Below the pieces are notes generated by a model. The model saw only the letters and a list, made by a program, of their open reading frames with translations. It made no database searches and was not told where the DNA came from. This document shows positions 1-40,468 of a stretch of 64,000 nt of DNA, piece after piece; position 1 is the stretch's first letter, and each line of letters opens with the position of its first letter. Source of the stretch: Candidatus Omnitrophota bacterium (GTDB taxonomy: Bacteria > Omnitrophota > Gorgyraeia > Duberdicusellales > 4484-171); NCBI GenBank assembly GCA_041652815.1, contig JBAZGN010000002.1, positions 366,261 to 430,260 of the forward strand, given 5' to 3'. A program made the position numbers and the translations under genes.

Positions 1-613
1 TTCTTCAGCTACAATAAGAAACGTAATGGAGACTCTGGAGAAAAAAGGGTTTCTTTCTCATATCCACACATCATCAGGGAGAGTCCCCACAACAAAGGGT
101 TTTAAACAGTACGTAGAATGTCTTAAGAAAGAAAAGATGGTAAATAATTACCCGATAGAGCTGGAATTTTATAATACAATTTCCGATAGCAGCCAGGTTA
201 TTAATAGTGCGCTGGATACTTTGGCGCTAAAAAGCGGTTATGCTTCATTTTTGGCAGTCTCTGGCGAAGGGCATAAGTTATTTTTTAGGGGCGCGCGTTT
301 TATTCTTGAGCAGCCGGAATTCGAAAACATCGTGCGGCTTAAGAGCGTTTTTTATGCTCTTGAGGTAAGATTAAATCAAATACAGGAGTTGCTACTTAAC
401 TATTTTGATGAGCAGGTAAAAATTTTGGTGGGCGATGAAATAGGTTTTGACGAAATATCGGATTGTTCGCTGGTTGTGTCTGGTTCCGGAGAAAAAAAGG
501 TTTCCTATTCACTGGCATTGCTTGGCCCGATGAGGATGGATTATGTAAGAGCTGTTTCCTGCTTGCAATCCATTAAATATCAGCTTGAAGCAATTATCGA
601 AGATAAGTTATGA
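1..613 (+). CDS. hrcA: Heat-inducible transcription repressor HrcA, C-terminal part (5' end lies off-window)
   Basis: Frame is open to the window start. VSSATIRN-like motif spans nt 2-28, then LE..G....HTSSGRVPT as in HrcA. Followed by grpE-dnaK-dnaJ. Confidence 0.8.
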
Positions 614-723
614 ACCCCGCCCTTCTAAGGCGCATTATGGTTTTTGAAAAATATAATAAATCTTACGAAAAACAAGGGTTGGGGTAAAAACAATAAATCT
701 AAAATACAAGGAGGAAGGGCGGG

Positions 724-1353
724 GTGAACGACGGTAAAGCAAAAAATAATAAAAACAACAAAGAAGAATTAGCTAAAGAAGAGAAGAAAGAAGAGCTTTG
801 CTTTCCGGTAGGCTCAGGTAAAGAAAAAAAAGAAGACTATGATGCTCTTTGGGGAAAATATACGCGGATCTGTGCGGATTTTGCTAATGCCAGAAAGCGC
901 TGGGACAGGGAAAAAGAAGACTTAATAAAATTCTCTACATCGTCGCTGATTAGAGACCTTTTAATAGTGCTTGATGAGTCAGAGCAGGCATTAAAAATGG
1001 TAAAAGAGCACGGCAATATAGAAGAAATTATAAAAGGCCTTGAAATGGCTTATAATAATTTTGTAAATCTTCTTAAAAAAAGAGGCCTTACACCTATAGA
1101 AAGTATTGGCAGGTTTTTTGACCCGCATTTACATGAAATAGTGGCAACTAAAGAAGTTGACGACTCAACAGATAAACCTATGGTTTTAGAAGAAATTCAA
1201 AAAGGTTATATGCTTGAAGATAAAGTATTACGTCCTTCAAGGGTAATTGTAGGGATTAAAAAACAGAGTACAGAGAACAGAGGGCAGAGTACAGATAACA
1301 GAGAACAGAAAACAGAAGAGGAAGAGCAAAGCCCAGAGGATAAAAAAAACTGA
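724..1353 (+). CDS. grpE: Nucleotide exchange factor GrpE
   Basis: GTG start after an AAGGAGG RBS. K/E-rich N-terminus and GrpE core. Synteny hrcA-grpE-dnaK. C-terminal low-complexity tail QSTENRGQSTDNREQ. Confidence 0.85.
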   Translation: MNDGKAKNNKNNKEELAKEEKKEELCFPVGSGKEKKEDYDALWGKYTRICADFANARKRWDREKEDLIKFSTSSLIRDLLIVLDESEQALKMVKEHGNIEEIIKGLEMAYNNFVNLLKKRGLTPIESIGRFFDPHLHEIVATKEVDDSTDKPMVLEEIQKGYMLEDKVLRPSRVIVGIKKQSTENRGQSTDNREQKTEEEEQSPEDKKN

Positions 1354-33570: not shown

Positions 33571-34065
33571 ATGAACTTAAACATACTAATACTAATAATC
33601 TTGATAACCGCCGCGCTCTGGGCAGCAATGACCAGAAGCCTGCTTCGTGCGGCAATAGGCTTGGCTCTGATGAGTATTGTGCTTGCCATACTTATGTTTC
33701 GTCTTAATTCCGGGCTTGCGGCAGTGTTTGAACTTTCTGTTTGCGCAGGGCTTATTCCCGTACTTTTTGTAAGCACCATAAGCCTTACGCATCCTTTAAC
33801 AAAAGAAGAAGTTTTACAGCATATGAAAGACAGAATCCGCAGGTTCTGGTATCTTCCTTTTATAACTGTTGTGTTAGGTATTGCTTTAAGCTTGATAACG
33901 GTAAAGCTTAATATTAAATTGCCGCCCCCTGAGACAGAGAAAGATGTACGCGCGGTTTTATGGAACCAGCGGCCGCTTTATCTTACCGGGCAAATCATAA
34001 TTTTACTTGTTGGTGCATTTAGTGTAGTTATCCTTTTTAAGGAGGCAGGGAAAGATGAGCGTTGA
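33571..34065 (+). CDS. MnhB/MrpB-like small membrane subunit
   Basis: Hydrophobic; its position in the Mrp module. Confidence 0.5.
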   Translation: MNLNILILIILITAALWAAMTRSLLRAAIGLALMSIVLAILMFRLNSGLAAVFELSVCAGLIPVLFVSTISLTHPLTKEEVLQHMKDRIRRFWYLPFITVVLGIALSLITVKLNIKLPPPETEKDVRAVLWNQRPLYLTGQIIILLVGAFSVVILFKEAGKDER

Positions 34066-34375
34066 GGCGTTACAAATGTTCTGGCCGTTTTTGCTTTTTG
34101 TGATAATGCTTTTTATAATAGGCATATATTGTATTCTAATCACTTTTAACCTTATCCGGGCATTGCTTGGTGTTGAAATACTTATCAAGGCAGTCACGCT
34201 TTTAATCGTAATTGCCGGTTTCGTAAGCGGGCATACTGCTCTTGCGCAGACAATAGTTATTACTTTAATAGTCGTAGAAGCTGTTTCTATAGCTGTTGCA
34301 GTAGGCATTGTCCTTGGTATCCACAGCCATAATAATTCGCTTGATGTAAGAAGGCTTTTAGATACAGATAAGTAA
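34055..34375 (+). CDS. NuoK/MnhC/HyfE-like subunit
   Basis: ~100-aa 3-TM protein with the NuoK-like LIRALLGVEIL motif. Confidence 0.7.
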   Translation: MSVEALQMFWPFLLFVIMLFIIGIYCILITFNLIRALLGVEILIKAVTLLIVIAGFVSGHTALAQTIVITLIVVEAVSIAVAVGIVLGIHSHNNSLDVRRLLDTDK

Positions 34376-34376
34376 A

Positions 34377-34667
34377 ATGAACCCAGCCCTTCCACATACA
34401 TATTATGTTTATCTATTGTTGTCAGATAAGGGCGGCCATATATACATTGGTTGTACGGCTAATTTGGAAAGAAGAATTAACGAGCATGAAGCAGGAAAAG
34501 TGTTTTCTGCAAAAAGATATCTTCCGATGAGCTTAGTTTATTACGAAACATATATTTCAAGAGTGGATGCGTTTAATCGTGAAAAATCACTTAAACAATA
34601 TGGTAGTGCTTTAGCAAAGTTGAAATTACGTTTGAAAGATACCTTGCAAGGAGGAAGGGCTGGGTGA
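34377..34667 (+). CDS. GIY-YIG nuclease-domain protein (YhbQ/UPF0213-like)
   Basis: YYVYLL...G.IYIGCT.NL.RR..EH motif; 96 aa. The ORF is bounded by 13-bp perfect inverted repeats. Confidence 0.8.
   Translation: MNPALPHTYYVYLLLSDKGGHIYIGCTANLERRINEHEAGKVFSAKRYLPMSLVYYETYISRVDAFNREKSLKQYGSALAKLKLRLKDTLQGGRAG
34381..34665 (+). mobile_element. 285-bp mini-element carrying the GIY-YIG ORF, bounded by perfect 13-bp terminal inverted repeats acccagcccttcc / ggaagggctgggt
   Basis: The two repeats are exact reverse complements at 34381-34393 and 34653-34665. The right end supplies AAGGAGG plus GTG for the downstream gene. Confidence 0.6.
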
Positions 34668-34996
34668 ATAGTTTATTATTAACTCCACCAATTGCATTTT
34701 TAATAATTCTATCTGTTTCTATCGCGGTTAGTTTTTCCTTTTCAAAGCTTAGCTTTAAGGGAAAGAAGAAAAGCGAGGAAAGCGGGGATTCCTACGCCTG
34801 CGGCGAAGATTTGTATGACCACATGGCCCAGCCTGACTACAGCAATTTTTTCCCTTTTGCTTTTTTCTTTACGCTTGCCCACGTAGGAACATTGATAATA
34901 GCAACTGTCCCGATAGAAACTATTAAATCATTTGATATGGCGGTTGTTTACATTATAGGTATTATCGTCGGGCTTTCGATTTTATTTAGAAAATAA
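34664..34996 (+). CDS. NuoA-like small membrane subunit (tentative)
   Basis: 3-TM protein with a YACGED motif reminiscent of NuoA/ND3 YECG. GTG start inside the element's right repeat. Confidence 0.45.
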   Translation: MNSLLLTPPIAFLIILSVSIAVSFSFSKLSFKGKKKSEESGDSYACGEDLYDHMAQPDYSNFFPFAFFFTLAHVGTLIIATVPIETIKSFDMAVVYIIGIIVGLSILFRK

Positions 34997-35001
34997 TTAT
35001 T

Positions 35002-35153
35002 AATAACCAAGTTCCAAGATACAATAACCAAATAATGACCAATAATCAAATTCCAATAACCAAACAAAAAAGGACAAAACTGTTTGGTCATTGGTTATTG
35101 GATATTGGAATTTATTTGGAGCTTGTATCTTGGTTATTGGTTATTTCGTAAGC
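35002..35153. repeat. ~150-bp hairpin element built from aataaccaa/ttggttatt words, copy 1 of 3
   Basis: Near-identical to 39451-39603 and 40335-40468. Confidence 0.85.
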
Positions 35154-35173
35154 AGGTAGTTAAATAAAAAACA

Positions 35174-35638
35174 ATGGGAGTGCTTAAAAAAGTTGTAACT
35201 TGGGCGCGCATAAAATCACCTTGGATTTTACATTTTAATACCGGTGCTTGTAACGCCTGCGACATAGAAATTATCGCAACGCTTACCCCGCGTTACGACC
35301 TTGAACGATTTGGCGTGCAACTTAAAGGCACCCCGCGCCACGCAGATGTTCTTATTTGTTCAGGCCCGGTAACAAAACAGGTGCACGATAGGTTACGCAG
35401 AATTTACGAACAGATGTGCGAACCTAAATTCGTAATTGCAGTAGGCACTTGCGCTTGTTCGGGCGGCGTGTTTAAAGGCTGTTATAATGTTGATTCCGGA
35501 ATCGATATGGTTTTGCCTGTAGCAGCATATGTTCCGGGGTGCCCTGCAAGCCCCAAAGCTATAATTGATGGAGTGGTTAAGCTGTTGCAGAGCCTTGAAG
35601 AAAAAGAAACCAGAAACCAGAGCACAGAAACCAGATGA
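35174..35638 (+). CDS. [NiFe] hydrogenase small subunit (NuoB/HycG/EchC-like)
   Basis: CNACDIE, GTCACSGG and GCPASP cysteine motifs. The C-terminal tail KETRNQSTETR is encoded by repeat words. Confidence 0.88.
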   Translation: MGVLKKVVTWARIKSPWILHFNTGACNACDIEIIATLTPRYDLERFGVQLKGTPRHADVLICSGPVTKQVHDRLRRIYEQMCEPKFVIAVGTCACSGGVFKGCYNVDSGIDMVLPVAAYVPGCPASPKAIIDGVVKLLQSLEEKETRNQSTETR

Positions 35639-36311: not shown

Positions 36312-37538
36312 ATGCGTAAACAAAATAAATTTAGAATTCCCATAGGACCGCAGCACCCTGCGCTTAAAGAGCCAGCTGGTTTTAGCGTGGCTTTAAAGGG
36401 AGAAAAAATAAAGGGCGTTAGTGTCCGGCTTGGTTATAATCATCGCGGCATAGAGAAAGCCTGTGAACAGCGGACTTATGTCCAGGATGTATATCTTATC
36501 GAGCGTATCTGCGGCATATGCTCGCATACACATTCAACCTGTTTTGTGCAGGGAGTTGAGGAAATTGCTGGTTTGGCAGTTCCTAAAAGGGCGCTTTATA
36601 TCCGCACGATAATCGGAGAGCTTGAGCGTATCCACAGCCATTATTTATGGCTAGGGGTAGCCGGCCACGAGATAGGTTTTGATACTCTGCTTATGTATTC
36701 CTGGCGTGACAGGGAAGTAGTTATGGATGTGTTAGCTATGCTTACCGGAAATCGTGTAAATTACGGCATAAATTGTATCGGCGGAGTCCGGCGCGATATA
36801 GACGAAGCGCAGGTAGGCCAAGTCCTTAAAGCTATAGATATTCTTGAAGAAAGGACTAAGTATTATATTGAAGTGGCTACCGAAGAAACCACAATGATAA
36901 AAAGGCTTTCCGGTGTTGGAGTATTAAGCCGCGAAGATGCTTTACGTCTCGGTGCAGTCGGCCCGACTGCCCGAGCTTCAGGCTTGGATTATGATATAAG
37001 GCGCATTGACCCTTATGCAGCATACGCGGAGCTTGATTTTGATGTAATAACAGATACTCACTGTGATGTCTACGGCCGGACAGTCGTGCGGATGAAAGAG
37101 CTAATGCAATCCTGCCGGATAATTCGCCAGGCGCTTAAGAATATGCCGCAAGGCCCGATTTCAATAAAGGCTCCGCGTAAAATCGCCGCCGGCGAAGTTA
37201 TCAGCAGATACGAAGCCCCGCGCGGAGAAGATGTGCATTATATTAAATCAAACGGCACAGAACAGCCGGAAAGAGTAAAAGTTCGAGCGCCCACGCTTGC
37301 CAATATGAAAGCGGTTAAGCATATGCTTCGTGACAGGTATTTGGCTGATATGCCTATTGTTATCGCTGCGATAGACCCTTGTTTTTCCTGCACTGACAGA
37401 ACTATTGCACTTGATAACCGCGATACCAAAAAGAAAGAAATCATCGAGTGGAAAACTTTGCGCAATTACGGTATAGAGTGGTACAAGGGGCGGGGAATAG
37501 ACTTTACAGATTTAAATAGAAGGTTAGCTTCTATTTAA
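36312..37538 (+). CDS. Group 4 [NiFe] hydrogenase large (catalytic) subunit
   Basis: Both Ni-Fe ligation motifs present: RICGICSHTH (L1) and DPCFSCTDR (L2). Complex I NuoD lacks these. Confidence 0.9.
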   Translation: MRKQNKFRIPIGPQHPALKEPAGFSVALKGEKIKGVSVRLGYNHRGIEKACEQRTYVQDVYLIERICGICSHTHSTCFVQGVEEIAGLAVPKRALYIRTIIGELERIHSHYLWLGVAGHEIGFDTLLMYSWRDREVVMDVLAMLTGNRVNYGINCIGGVRRDIDEAQVGQVLKAIDILEERTKYYIEVATEETTMIKRLSGVGVLSREDALRLGAVGPTARASGLDYDIRRIDPYAAYAELDFDVITDTHCDVYGRTVVRMKELMQSCRIIRQALKNMPQGPISIKAPRKIAAGEVISRYEAPRGEDVHYIKSNGTEQPERVKVRAPTLANMKAVKHMLRDRYLADMPIVIAAIDPCFSCTDRTIALDNRDTKKKEIIEWKTLRNYGIEWYKGRGIDFTDLNRRLASI

Positions 37539-39437: not shown

Positions 39438-39450
39438 AAAGATAGTGGAG

Positions 39451-39603
39451 GAATAACCAAGCTCCAAGATACAATAACCAAACAATGACCAATAATCAAA
39501 TTCCAATAACCAAACAAAAAAGGACAAAACTGTTTGGTCATTGGTTATTGGATATTGGAATTTGTTTGTATCTTGTACCTTGGTTATTGGTTATTTCGTA
39601 AGC
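39451..39603. repeat. aataaccaa/ttggttatt hairpin element, copy 2
   Basis: See copy 1. Confidence 0.85.
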
Positions 39604-40334: not shown

Positions 40335-40468
40335 AATAACCAAGCTCCAAGAAACAATAACCAAATAATATCCAATAACCAAATATCAATAACCAAACAT
40401 TTCTGTTTGGTTATTGGTCATTGGAACTTGGAATTTGTTTGGAACTTGTATCTTGGTTATTGGTTATT
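40335..40468. repeat. aataaccaa/ttggttatt hairpin element, copy 3
   Basis: See copy 1. Confidence 0.8.

Follow-up and report, generated by a model that had tools for sequence, protein, structure and literature searches.

Previously, Ssn proteins were described as single-domain GIY-YIG endonucleases that act on single-stranded DNA as directed by hairpins, together with the SRM (NTS) repeats (Chenal 2025, PMC11893778). In that study, proteins were assigned to Ssn by an rpsblast match to CDD cd10448 with a score >100, mobility of Ssn and NTS was raised only as a hypothesis, and domestication was favored, with SsnA/NTS in Neisseria proposed to be a host genome-maintenance factor. Here we analyzed a stretch of 64,000 nucleotides from a Candidatus Omnitrophota genome (the window), which carries a GIY-YIG gene of 96 codons; Ssn proteins, which also consist of this single domain, have ~90-100 aa. 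The clade profile of this nuclease matched Ssn proteins of Azospirillum (L163; 57.9 bits, E 9e-11), Shinella (L162; 53.6 bits, E 2e-9) and gonococcus (SsnA; 43.4 bits, E 3e-6; Z = 1.8e9 throughout), to which the nuclease is 37%, 47% and 36% identical, respectively. The SsnA sequence was taken from a PLSDB entry that is labeled as a plasmid although it is a gonococcal chromosome. Further likenesses are that the gene is bracketed by a GC-rich hairpin repeat with many orphan copies dispersed in the genome, that a conserved 5' flank gives the repeat its orientation, and that the Azospirillum ssn gene also lies inside an operon, between sufB and sufC. The SRM regular expression gave 9 matches around the gonococcal, 4 around the Shinella and 4 around the Azospirillum ssn genes, and the SRM consensus HGTCWYN(0-2)YYVSBRHN(0-5)WNVSBRGN(0-2)RNCYNB had 0 matches on both strands of the whole window. 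Thus, the repeats of the element are not SRM as defined in PMC11893778.

The element at the NuoK-NuoA junction has a total length of ~290 bp and consists of one small nuclease gene between two hairpin arms, which form a perfect 13-bp inverted repeat separated by 259 nt (Table 1). Both the coordinates and the sequence of this arrangement agree with what the sequence-only reading had reported, and its label of a hydrogenase operon is fair in view of the 49-kDa-type subunit encoded downstream. It had also let the left repeat overlap the ATG of the nuclease gene, which is incorrect, as the perfect left arm begins 2 nt past that codon. Its statement that the right repeat carries AAGGAGG and the GTG start holds insofar as both overlap the right arm, but each shares just 2 nt with it and otherwise lies outside. 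The ATG of the GIY-YIG ORF (34377-34379) formerly served as the start codon of the NuoA-like gene. As in full-length copies generally, the TGA stop overlaps the new GTG (GTGA), which is composed of the last G of the element and the duplicated TG(AA). The 13-mer arm with up to 2 mismatches was found 6 times against 0.66 expected, and the 21-nt right end (AAGGAGGAAGGGCNGGGTGAA) twice against 0 expected. No Rfam family matched the window at gathering thresholds. The region also holds many short chance inverted repeats.

A second, ORF-less copy lies between hrcA and grpE. Where the arms of the full-length element have an A:T pair, those of the short copy have C:G, a compensatory change; the terminal arms of the short copy pair in minimum-energy folds of both RNA and DNA, and short elements found in L133 and L051, at other loci, are homologous to its interior. 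CIRCE, the HrcA operator, was also considered and rejected, as its sequence is unrelated.

Table 1. Features of the two element copies and of the neighboring genes (positions in the window).
Feature	Position	Strand	Remarks
Full-length element with flanking repeats, ATGAA / CCCAGCCC...GGGCTGGG / TGAA	34377..34668	+	Anatomy shared with L002, L005, L007, L009
Element core, CCC to GGG	34382-34664	+	Within the full-length element
GIY-YIG nuclease ORF, 96 aa, single-domain	34377..34667	+	Pfam PF01541, E 4.9e-14
Left hairpin arm ACCCAGCCCTTCC	34381..34393	+	Codons 2-6 (NPALP)
Right hairpin arm GGAAGGGCTGGGT	34653..34665	+	Exact reverse complement of left arm; codons GRAG and stop
Shine-Dalgarno-like (SD) AAGGAGG of the element, for the NuoA-like gene	34648..34654	+	9 nt upstream of GTG
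NuoA-like gene, GTG start	34664..34996	+	PF00507 match weak
NuoK-like gene, upstream of element	34055..34375	+	PF00420; TAA ends 1 nt before element ATG
49-kDa-type subunit, downstream	36312-37538		NiFeSe_Hases match; RICGICSHTH and DPCFSCTDR motifs in translation
ORF-less, MITE-like short copy	610..728	+	Between hrcA and grpE; ends shared with full-length element
hrcA	26-613		TGA inside ATGA of short copy
Short copy, ATGAA	610-614		
Short copy, arm1	614-626		
Short copy, internal arm2 AAGGGTTGGGG	674-684		
Short copy, SD AAGGAGG	708-714		
Short copy, arm3	713-725		
Short copy, TGAA	725-728		
grpE	GTG at 724		

To define the state of the junction before insertion, we compared it with orthologous hydrogenase operons. 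The NuoK-NuoA junction was empty in the close relatives L129-L132, where the sequence reads TAAAATGAA..., given also as TAAAATGAAAAAC, and the empty site has the form TAAA directly followed by ATGA(A/G). All 22 of the more distant relatives with a readable junction (61-69% NuoK identity and below) were also empty; this count does not include L156 and L157, whose sequences end before the junction. The relatives with an empty site have an ATG at the homologous codon and the same NuoA-like N-terminus, M-x-x-L-L-L-T-P-P. Filled sites were found in the window, in L128 (a deletion derivative) and in L133/L134 (short type). The closest pair, L132 (empty) and L133 (filled), has flanks that are 94.8% and 96.4% identical and differs by an insertion of 89 bp that has TGAA at either side. 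These comparisons place the apparent insertion point between ATGAA and the remainder of the NuoA-like gene, and the two TGAA copies may represent either a target duplication or an element-borne TGAA that follows the target TGAA, which are identical in sequence. These comparisons support the earlier proposal that the mini-element is an insertion, rather than a conserved ancestral feature.

A search for further repeat pairs with or without the ORF, which the sequence-only reading had suggested, yielded the short copy at 610-728 and at least 51 elements in other genomes. The genome scan returned 67 low-GC matches, 51 of them with a left arm; the elements are MITE-like and mostly 48-190 bp long, and the 51 with a left arm span 54-291 bp. 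Nearly all of these data come from MAGs and metagenome contigs, and the hosts are mainly Candidatus Omnitrophota and Elusimicrobiota. The scanned elements lie in sense orientation on a gene start and have the form ATGAA[CCCNGCCCTTCC...GGAAGGGCN'GGG]TGAA, with a GC-rich hairpin of the family consensus CCCNGCCC(T/C)TCC ... GGA(A/G)GGGCN'GGG, the loop of which is either the gene for the 96-aa single-domain GIY-YIG protein, giving ~290 bp overall, or a short remnant that codes for nothing, giving 48-190 bp. More than 40 unrelated pairs of flanking genes carry an element, and ATGAA is the only feature that they share. AGGAGG or GGAAGG is present at the same position in all elements. Of 36 elements, 34 have an ORF of 110 aa or more whose exact start is the right-end GTG, and 18 have the TGA of the upstream gene inside ATGA; low-GC matches without the strict left arm open long ORFs as well. 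MAG JBDROR01 contains near-identical short elements at seven or more loci, and ~7 further genuine copies were found in 349 kb of scanned loci. Nested or tandem insertions at (A/G)TGAA were present in L036, L086 and L161; nesting was read from the raw sequences, because the repeated arms make the MAFFT alignment of nested elements ambiguous.

The PF01541 domain of the nuclease spans residues 9-75, and the protein has no DNA-binding domain for a long target; the other Pfam matches, T5orf172 and MUG113, were both weak and related, no HUH/Y1 (IS200-like) family was found among the Pfam matches, and no NCBIfam family scored above its cut-off. This ORF is the only one in the element, which contains no recognized transposase of the DDE, HUH or serine/tyrosine recombinase type. 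Residues Y12, Y23, G25, R33, H37 and E57, of GIY-YIG type, were invariant in 10 homologues, as were R68 and E69; N67 varies, being H or K in some. Synonymous variation at 27 of 32 invariant interior residues indicates purifying selection on the nuclease. An AF2 model gave one compact beta-beta-alpha-beta-alpha-alpha fold (pLDDT 73.9; below 50 for residues 1-5), for which the best PDB folds were UPF0213, Slx1 and UvrC, and in this model the arm-encoded peptide tails fall outside the predicted nuclease fold. Homologous ORFs in other assemblies were 54-85% identical, and all 10 homologues keep the arm-encoded termini MNPAL(P/S)...GRAG and the same hairpin arms. They reside inside unrelated operons, between feoA and feoB, hisF and hisI, or fer4 and POR, and full-length elements in five different operon contexts have 4-nt overlaps on both sides.

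We next consider the arms, which pair in RNA and DNA folds. Their variable position is A:T in the full-length element of the window, L007 and L009, and C:G in the short copy of the window, L002 and L005. Among the 51 scan-ascertained elements this pair was C:G in 22, A:T in 18, T:G in 2 and mismatched in 9. Further compensated variants were found in L161 (CCCCGCCCCTC/GAGGGGCGGGG) and L011 (CCCCGCACCT/AGGTGCGGGG). Four-fold degenerate sites vary in 7 of 7 interior codons and are fixed in 4 of 6 arm codons, the remaining two of which covary. Arm complementarity is thus maintained by compensatory changes and fixed synonymous sites. Counted to tell RNA pairing from pairing in single-stranded DNA, mispairs between arm1 and arm2 were G:T in 58 and A:C in 46 cases, in an ungapped registration that makes these counts unreliable, and arm1 variants were by eye mostly C-to-T, a pattern that base composition and mutation bias confound.

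Altogether, our results suggest that the element in the hydrogenase operon belongs, as the autonomous member, to a family of selfish DNA elements of very small size, which are driven by their nuclease, inserted at start codons and accompanied by MITE derivatives; we assign this reading a probability of roughly 0.72. It sustains the earlier view of a mobile element, with a behavior closer to that of a target-specific transposon with MITE derivatives than to that of a classical homing endonuclease. Insertion between genes had been claimed as well, and the element does lie at a gene junction, but the target is the start codon ATGAA itself and not merely the intergenic gap. Insertion occurs in sense orientation at ATGAA, i.e., the start codon and the first two bases of the second codon, and leaves TGAA at either side, such that the host ATG, with its upstream ribosome-binding site if there is one, now heads the ORF of the element. 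The right end of the element provides a new AGGAGG or GGAAGG and a G that makes GTG from the duplicated TGAA, and thus the downstream protein is unchanged. Overlapping stops and starts would keep the translational coupling of the operon. An earlier proposal that the element preserves operon expression by supplying a translation start is borne out for the supply, since an SD-like sequence and GTG are provided (34 of 36 ORFs); that expression is preserved is what the sequence leads us to expect.

By homology with Ssn nucleases, the nuclease may recognize the folded sense-strand hairpin while it is single-stranded, on the lagging-strand template or in a transcription bubble. In the window, 66 of 68 genes are on the + strand and GC skew is positive, and hence the sense strand is probably the lagging-strand template. 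The nuclease would then cut beside the hairpin at TGAA, from which excision or copying could begin, and host replication, repair or ligation might finish the insertion at another ATGAA; short copies would be mobilized in trans. A point against this proposed transposition chemistry is that GIY-YIG enzymes hydrolyze DNA with no covalent intermediate, so that strand transfer or ligation needs other factors. We propose that copies persist at start codons because the host gene now takes its ribosome-binding site and start codon from the right end. The window has 13 ATGAA sites at gene starts and 23 in intergenic DNA, and survival, instead of targeting, could explain why the elements are restricted to start codons.

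Alternatively, the element could be a domesticated or host-beneficial cassette, in which the hairpin and SD/GTG form an mRNA coupling or stability element and the nuclease is a host genome-maintenance factor, as the preference for domestication in the Ssn paper (PMC11893778) would encourage. The elements are always in sense, transcribed and at gene starts; a stem of arm1 and arm3 would occlude the spacer and the GTG, with arm2 competing for arm1 in 35 of 53 short copies; and solo right ends in L084 and L117 remain as ribosome-binding sites. Selection on arm pairing could act at the level of mRNA, by control of the downstream start, instead of on single-stranded DNA. However, the closest relatives function without the element at the same junction, and the left arms, which are dispensable to the host, are intact in most copies. 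The ORF has decayed to pseudogene or deletion derivatives in L116 and L128, as is usual for selfish elements, nested insertions occur, and no Rfam family matches. We consider this explanation unlikely.

A classical free-standing homing endonuclease of the T4 Seg/Mob kind, making a double-strand break in one cognate allele that is repaired by homologous recombination, with the inverted repeat incidental or regulatory, would explain the GIY-YIG catalytic domain and a gene that, like its counterparts in T4, is set between conserved neighbors and overlaps them at start and stop codons. The NuoK-NuoA site is also filled in three lineages and empty in between, which lateral homing could yield. Against this, the protein has only 96 aa and lacks a DNA-binding domain for a long target, more than 40 unrelated junctions share only ATGAA, copies that lack the ORF but keep conserved ends have become numerous within single genomes, insertions are nested, and the arms are maintained by compensatory change. 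Homing in this sense is very unlikely.

We give still less credence to mobilization in trans by an unrelated hairpin-recognizing enzyme, e.g., HUH/Y1 or an IS110-type recombinase, with the GIY-YIG ORF as cargo in the loop. In its favor, strand transfer lies outside the chemistry of GIY-YIG nucleases, the majority of copies have no ORF, and elsewhere RAYT or IS110 enzymes move or target hairpin repeats (cf. the discussion of PMC11893778). Yet the first and last codons of one protein family contain the arms, both across its 54-100% identity and in sister clades (MNPAP...GGAG) whose arms have co-varied, the short copies L109 and L128 retain 5' and 3' remnants of the ORF, and the homologous Ssn proteins are themselves hairpin-specific nucleases. 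Finally, the idea that a small GIY-YIG gene of the ordinary, vertically inherited kind is flanked by an inverted repeat by chance, for which the many short chance repeats of the region might speak, is already refuted by the pattern statistics, the recurrence at unrelated loci and the empty orthologous sites.

The empty, filled, nested and deletion-derivative sites provide direct comparative evidence that small Ssn-like GIY-YIG nucleases and their hairpins are, or recently were, mobile. Because the element replaces both the ribosome-binding site and the start codon, it can reside, free of polar effects, in essential operons (hydrogenase, hrcA-grpE-dnaK, feoAB, his, POR). These elements account for many GTG starts and for conserved GGAAGGGCNGGGTGAA ribosome-binding-site regions in Omnitrophota and Elusimicrobiota, and annotators should be aware of the 25-aa mini-ORFs and N-terminally extended GIY-YIG proteins. 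The nuclease and its hairpin are also a candidate new specificity for the toolbox of single-strand DNA cutting proposed for Ssn enzymes. In a full-text literature search, no description of a start-codon-targeting or GIY-YIG transposon was found, and the sole paper found to name both GIY-YIG and Omnitrophota merely lists a GIY-YIG gene among horizontally transferred genes. A more ambitious claim, which we advance tentatively and at somewhat less than even odds, is that this family would be the first among prokaryotic DNA transposons to be driven by a bare GIY-YIG (Ssn-type) single-strand nuclease and the first mobile element to target start codons: it would take the host ATG and ribosome-binding site, give back SD and GTG, become indispensable through its right end ("addiction"), and use its arms at once as repeats, coding sequence and coupling structure.

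Among known systems, integron attC cassettes were rejected as a model, as they place the hairpin 3' of the ORF and require a tyrosine recombinase. Bacterial MITEs (ERIC, Correia/CREE, RUP and Rickettsia palindromic elements) resemble the short copies in their 50-190 bp, terminal inverted repeats and short flanking direct repeat, in co-transcription with operons and in their origin by internal deletion of a coding parent. The present family differs in having a parent other than a DDE insertion sequence, in targeting a start codon and in donating a ribosome-binding site and start; Rickettsia palindromic elements, moreover, lie in frame within genes, whereas the elements described here lie at the first codon. 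In REP/RAYT (REPIN) and IS200/IS605 systems, as here, hairpin repeats flank one small nuclease gene and non-autonomous copies are numerous; a short tetra- or pentanucleotide target lies beside the foot of the hairpin, and a single-strand, orientation-specific logic is plausible. As in IS608 (cf. TTAC/TCAA), TGAA at the left flank and the right terminus would permit precise excision. However, their enzyme is an HUH/Y1 transposase and not a hydrolytic GIY-YIG nuclease, and REPs are extragenic and usually follow genes, whereas these elements sit on start codons. T4-like Seg/Mob genes share the GIY-YIG domain, the small gene between conserved genes, the stop/start overlaps and the preserved transcription, but the present family has no DNA-binding domain and no single cognate site, and it possesses terminal inverted repeats and MITE derivatives.

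UPF0213/YhbQ (PDB 1zg2, 1ywl) and the Slx1 domain are the best solved structures both by sequence (E 7e-7) and by fold, although the clade profile gives them 32.6 bits against 43-58 for Ssn; we know of no repeat association for either. The Ssn proteins are thus the nearest relatives by this score, and the two systems differ in several respects. The C-terminal segment W..K..LIE..NP.W.DL of three SRM-flanked Ssn proteins, which we observed on these three members and which is no criterion of PMC11893778, is absent from the clade described here, which has YGSALAKLKLRLKDTLQGGRAG instead. Ssn genes have complete hairpins outside the gene, whereas here the ORF separates the two halves of a single hairpin, and its first and last codons contain the arms. 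Finally, insertion occurs here exactly on start codons, with SD and start replaced, and mobility is documented by empty, filled and nested sites.

The sequence-only reading had placed a perfect 13-bp inverted repeat around a 96-aa GIY-YIG ORF, between NuoK-like and NuoA-like genes, and both the sequence and a repeat finder bore this out: the arms are a 13-nt pair, 100% complementary, with a spacing of 259 nt. The operon also has genes for subunits resembling Nuo L/M/N, J, B, C and D, and its hydrogenase label was upheld, the D-like subunit matching NiFeSe_Hases. The left repeat does not overlap the GIY-YIG ATG (34377-34379), as had been claimed, but begins 2 nt after it. The right repeat was said to carry AAGGAGG (34648-34654) and the GTG (34664-34666) of the NuoA-like gene; each does overlap it, but by just 2 nt, and neither lies wholly inside. 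The TGA stop of the nuclease overlaps this GTG (GTGA). The 96-aa protein itself was traced to a Candidatus Omnitrophica MAG.

Coordinates of the element copies, neighbouring genes and compared features (window positions unless a replicon is named)
Feature	Position	Strand	Remarks
NuoK-like gene	34055-34375	+	upstream neighbour of the GIY-YIG ORF
GIY-YIG ORF, 96 aa	34377-34667	+	Pfam GIY-YIG, E 4.9e-14
Left arm ACCCAGCCCTTCC	34381-34393	+	window sequence
Right arm GGAAGGGCTGGGT	34653-34665	+	window sequence
NuoA-like gene	34664-34996	+	GTG start; downstream neighbour of the GIY-YIG ORF
hrcA	26-613		TGA within ATGA of the ORF-less copy
ORF-less copy, ATGAACCCCGCCCTTC ... AAGGAGGAAGGGCGGGGTGAA	arms 614-626, 713-725		between hrcA and grpE; same ends as the long copy
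grpE	GTG at 724		downstream of the ORF-less copy
AT-rich hairpins, 3 copies	34995-35145; ~39450-39595; ~40335-40465		
Canonical Ssn-type GIY-YIG gene (L163)	255506-255799, Azospirillum lipoferum 4B plasmid AZO_p3		flanked by sufB and sufC, all in one direction; 2 SRM hairpins each side

A mismatch-tolerant search of the window for the arm turned up a second pair. Where the long copy has A:T, these arms have C:G, a compensatory change, and two copies of the 21-nt right end are present in the window (0 expected). Together with copies in other genomes, this ORF-less copy confirms that the repeat pair recurs with or without the ORF. Nine homologues (54-85% identity) all retain the arm-encoded residues, N-terminal MNPAL(P/S) and C-terminal GRAG, and are divergent in the interior. 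On their own contigs, homologous ORFs were always co-directional with their neighbours, with a 4-nt overlap on each side (FeoA/FeoB, HisF-like/HisI, an unnamed gene/CDP-alcohol phosphatidyltransferase, and ferredoxin/POR alpha). Their junctions read ATGA(A/G)CCCNGCCCTT... ...GGAAGGGCN'GGGTGAA, with N complementary to N' in every case.

Scanning metagenomes with the NuoK-like protein gave 31 orthologous loci. The NuoK-NuoA junction is empty in L129 (TAAAATGAGTAAA), L130, L131 (TAAAATGAACAAG) and L132 (TAAAATGAAAAAC), at NuoK identities of 86, 85, 84 and 81%, respectively, and in the 22 distant relatives with a readable junction (61-69% and below; L156 and L157 end before it). Because of these empty junctions, the alternative that repeats and ORF are a conserved ancestral feature, with no empty sites anywhere, fails. 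The junction is filled in L128 (92%), by ~115 bp that keep ~30 first and ~16 last nt of the window element with a decayed left arm, and in L133 and L134 (80%), by a 94-bp short element. The flanks of L132 and L133 show 94.8% identity on the left (2327 bp) and 96.4% on the right, and the two loci differ by an 89-bp insertion with the layout ...TAAA ATGAA [ CCCAGCCC...GAGCTGAG TGAA ] AAACTTTTTATTAACTCC. The ATG that starts NuoA in the empty allele is a GTG in the filled allele; the protein N-terminus is the same. The element inserts at ATGAA start codons in the sense orientation, with TGAA on both sides, and donates a Shine-Dalgarno-like sequence (SD) and GTG.

The pattern GRAGGAAGGGCNGGGTGAA was then scanned against one genome per GTDB species, where it matched at least 117 loci. 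The high-GC hits, which lack a left arm and are not, as a rule, followed by a long ORF, are chance matches. Among the matches listed, 67 lie in low-GC MAGs, and for 51 of the 67 a left arm (≤3 mismatches) lies no more than 330 nt away; these 51 elements are 54-291 bp long (most <120 bp), and their variable arm position is C:G in 22, A:T in 18, T:G in 2 and mismatched in 9. The hosts are mostly Omnitrophota, with several Elusimicrobiota/Endomicrobiales and a few MAGs labelled Planctomycetales or Clostridia. Among the 36 strictly defined elements in the matches listed, an ORF of ≥110 aa opens exactly at the right-end GTG in 34, the TGA of the upstream gene lies inside ATGA in 18, and 27 have ATGAA as their left pentamer, with ATGAG in another 3. 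The near-exclusive location at start codons is not explained by the pentamer alone, because of the ATGAA pentamers in the window, 13 are at predicted gene starts, as against 23 between genes and 173 within them. It may reflect targeting, use of the captured start to express the ORF, or longer persistence of copies whose right end has become the ribosome-binding site of a host gene. Three low-GC loci (L084, L117 and L125) have a perfect right end (SD, right arm, GTGAA) opening a long ORF and no recognisable left arm. L084 (an Elusimicrobia MAG) and L117 (the MAG of L075, L080 and L121) look like solo right ends kept as host-gene ribosome-binding sites, and L125 (Paenibacillus alginolyticus, outside the host range of confirmed elements) may be a chance match.

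Most short copies have an internal arm able to pair with the left arm: at least 9 of 11 positions pair in 35 of 53 copies, against a mean of 7.0 in shuffled controls. This arm is often followed by T(A/G)AA, an SD-bearing spacer and the right arm, and by inspection it covaries with the left arm in L029, L033 and L043 (GCTCTT/AAGAGC). Terminal arms are paired in minimum-energy folds, both RNA and DNA. Full-length copies decay to deletion derivatives, short copies multiply, and elements nest. L116 617-906 is a pseudogenised autonomous copy, with a 282-bp core, perfect arms and a GIY-YIG frame broken by several stop codons; some short copies keep remnants of the ORF 5' end (L109, L128); other short copies have internal sequence in common across loci and genomes (window 610-728, L133, L051); and near-identical 85-86-bp copies occupy several loci of one MAG. 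Insertions at (A/G)TGAA can also be nested or tandem. In L036, a second hairpin module lies at the internal GTGAA of an L118-type element; in L161, a minimal hairpin unit occupies the start codon of the nuclease itself and adds the in-frame extension MNPAPQRGAS-VNPTPHNW.

Doubled N-termini (MNPAP...-VNPTP... or MNPAPSP...MNPAPSP...) were seen in the GIY-YIG proteins P0018, P0019 and L161 165-485, the last because of this insertion; gene callers report such proteins as longer ones. Directly upstream of the sister-clade full-length element in L160, where the contig ends, GGAAGGAGGGGCAGAATGAA (1-30) resembles a decayed right end (SD, right arm and start), which suggests repeated insertion at a start codon made by an older element. 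Three loci of MAG JBDROR01 (L086, L088, L118) have similar upstream flanks, TTA(T/C)GGAGA(T/C)TT...(A/G)TGAA, and the mobile unit of this subfamily may reach further left than ATGAA, with an SD of its own.

Complementarity of the arms is maintained. Five full-length genes were aligned by codon. At invariant residues, the four-fold degenerate third position varies in 7 of 7 interior codons and is fixed in 4 of 6 arm codons; the two variable ones, P3 (CCA/CCC) and A97 (GCT/GCG), covary perfectly. Synonymous differences at 27 of 32 invariant interior residues indicate that the protein is under purifying selection. The AF2 model, a GIY-YIG fold (pLDDT 73.9; <50 at residues 1-5 and 92-94) closest in the PDB to UPF0213, Slx1 and UvrC, agrees as a prediction with this codon-level picture of arms and interior. 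Sister clades encode MNPAP...G(G)AG, and the arms of L161 (CCCCGCCCCTC/GAGGGGCGGGG), L160 (ACCCAGCCCCTCC/GGGAGAGGCTGGGT) and an extra copy in L011 (CCCCGCACCT/AGGTGCGGGG) are compensated double changes.

A second, unrelated repeat family was observed in the window, an AT-rich long hairpin of ~145 nt built of CCAATAACCAA units (21 hits against 2.0 expected). Its copies apparently lie in spacers between genes of the hydrogenase operon, the gene context having been read at the first copy only. The RNA fold of 34990-35175 has -59.6 kcal/mol (z = -9.25), and in L128 and L133 the spacer corresponding to the first hairpin contains A-rich repeats of a different kind.

Altogether, the second copy, the empty and filled sites, the nesting and the multiplied short copies support the earlier mobile-element interpretation, and we rate the element as an Ssn-like GIY-YIG plus hairpin selfish element. 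Its unusual features are a hairpin split around the ORF and encoded in the first and last codons, start-codon insertion that rebuilds the ribosome-binding site and start, and a clear MITE-like derivative family in two little-studied phyla. By homology with Ssn, the nuclease would recognise the folded sense-strand hairpin when single-stranded and cut at the adjoining TGAA. Of 68 crude gene calls in the window, 66 are on the + strand, and every 8-kb bin has positive GC skew; therefore, the sense strand is probably the lagging-strand template, and the window probably belongs to a single replichore whose genes run in the direction of replication. Cuts after both TGAA (left flank and right terminus) would remove the element exactly and regenerate ATGAA, and with a hydrolytic enzyme host ligation or replication would be needed to finish the reaction.

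Full-text literature searching brought up the Ssn family (Chenal et al. 2025, PMC11893778) as the only closely related system, and found no account of elements of this kind inserting at start codons. The Ssn proteins (cd10448) consist of a single GIY-YIG domain in 94 aa; they bind NTS/SRM hairpin repeats of ssDNA and make their cut immediately upstream. Their genes are often repeat-flanked, orphan repeats can number hundreds, and the authors pointed out the IS-like architecture and the REP/RAYT analogy (PMC11893778). We recovered gonococcal SsnA (94 aa, 9 NTS repeats around the gene) and two SRM-flanked homologues, from Shinella and Azospirillum; the location of the latter (L163) shows that Ssn/SRM units sit within operons in Proteobacteria too. 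The source of SsnA was L159 (NZ_CP119140.1), listed in PLSDB as a 2.17-Mb 'plasmid' but evidently the chromosome of a Neisseria gonorrhoeae strain, in which the ssnA orthologue is unannotated and 9 NTS and many dRS3 repeats lie within 3.2 kb around it. The clade profile scored SsnA at 43.4, Shinella at 53.6 and Azospirillum at 57.9 bits, and PDB UPF0213 proteins at 32.6 bits. An exhaustive profile search found 15,614 representative relatives at E ≤1e-3 but just 6 at ≤1e-30, so the window clade makes up only a small part of a very large family. The C-terminal W..K..LIE..NP.W.DL common to the three Ssn proteins examined is absent from this clade, and the SRM consensus had no match in the window. 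Finally, TGAA at the left flank and right terminus parallels the excision logic of IS200/IS605, although the enzyme here is a hydrolytic GIY-YIG nuclease.
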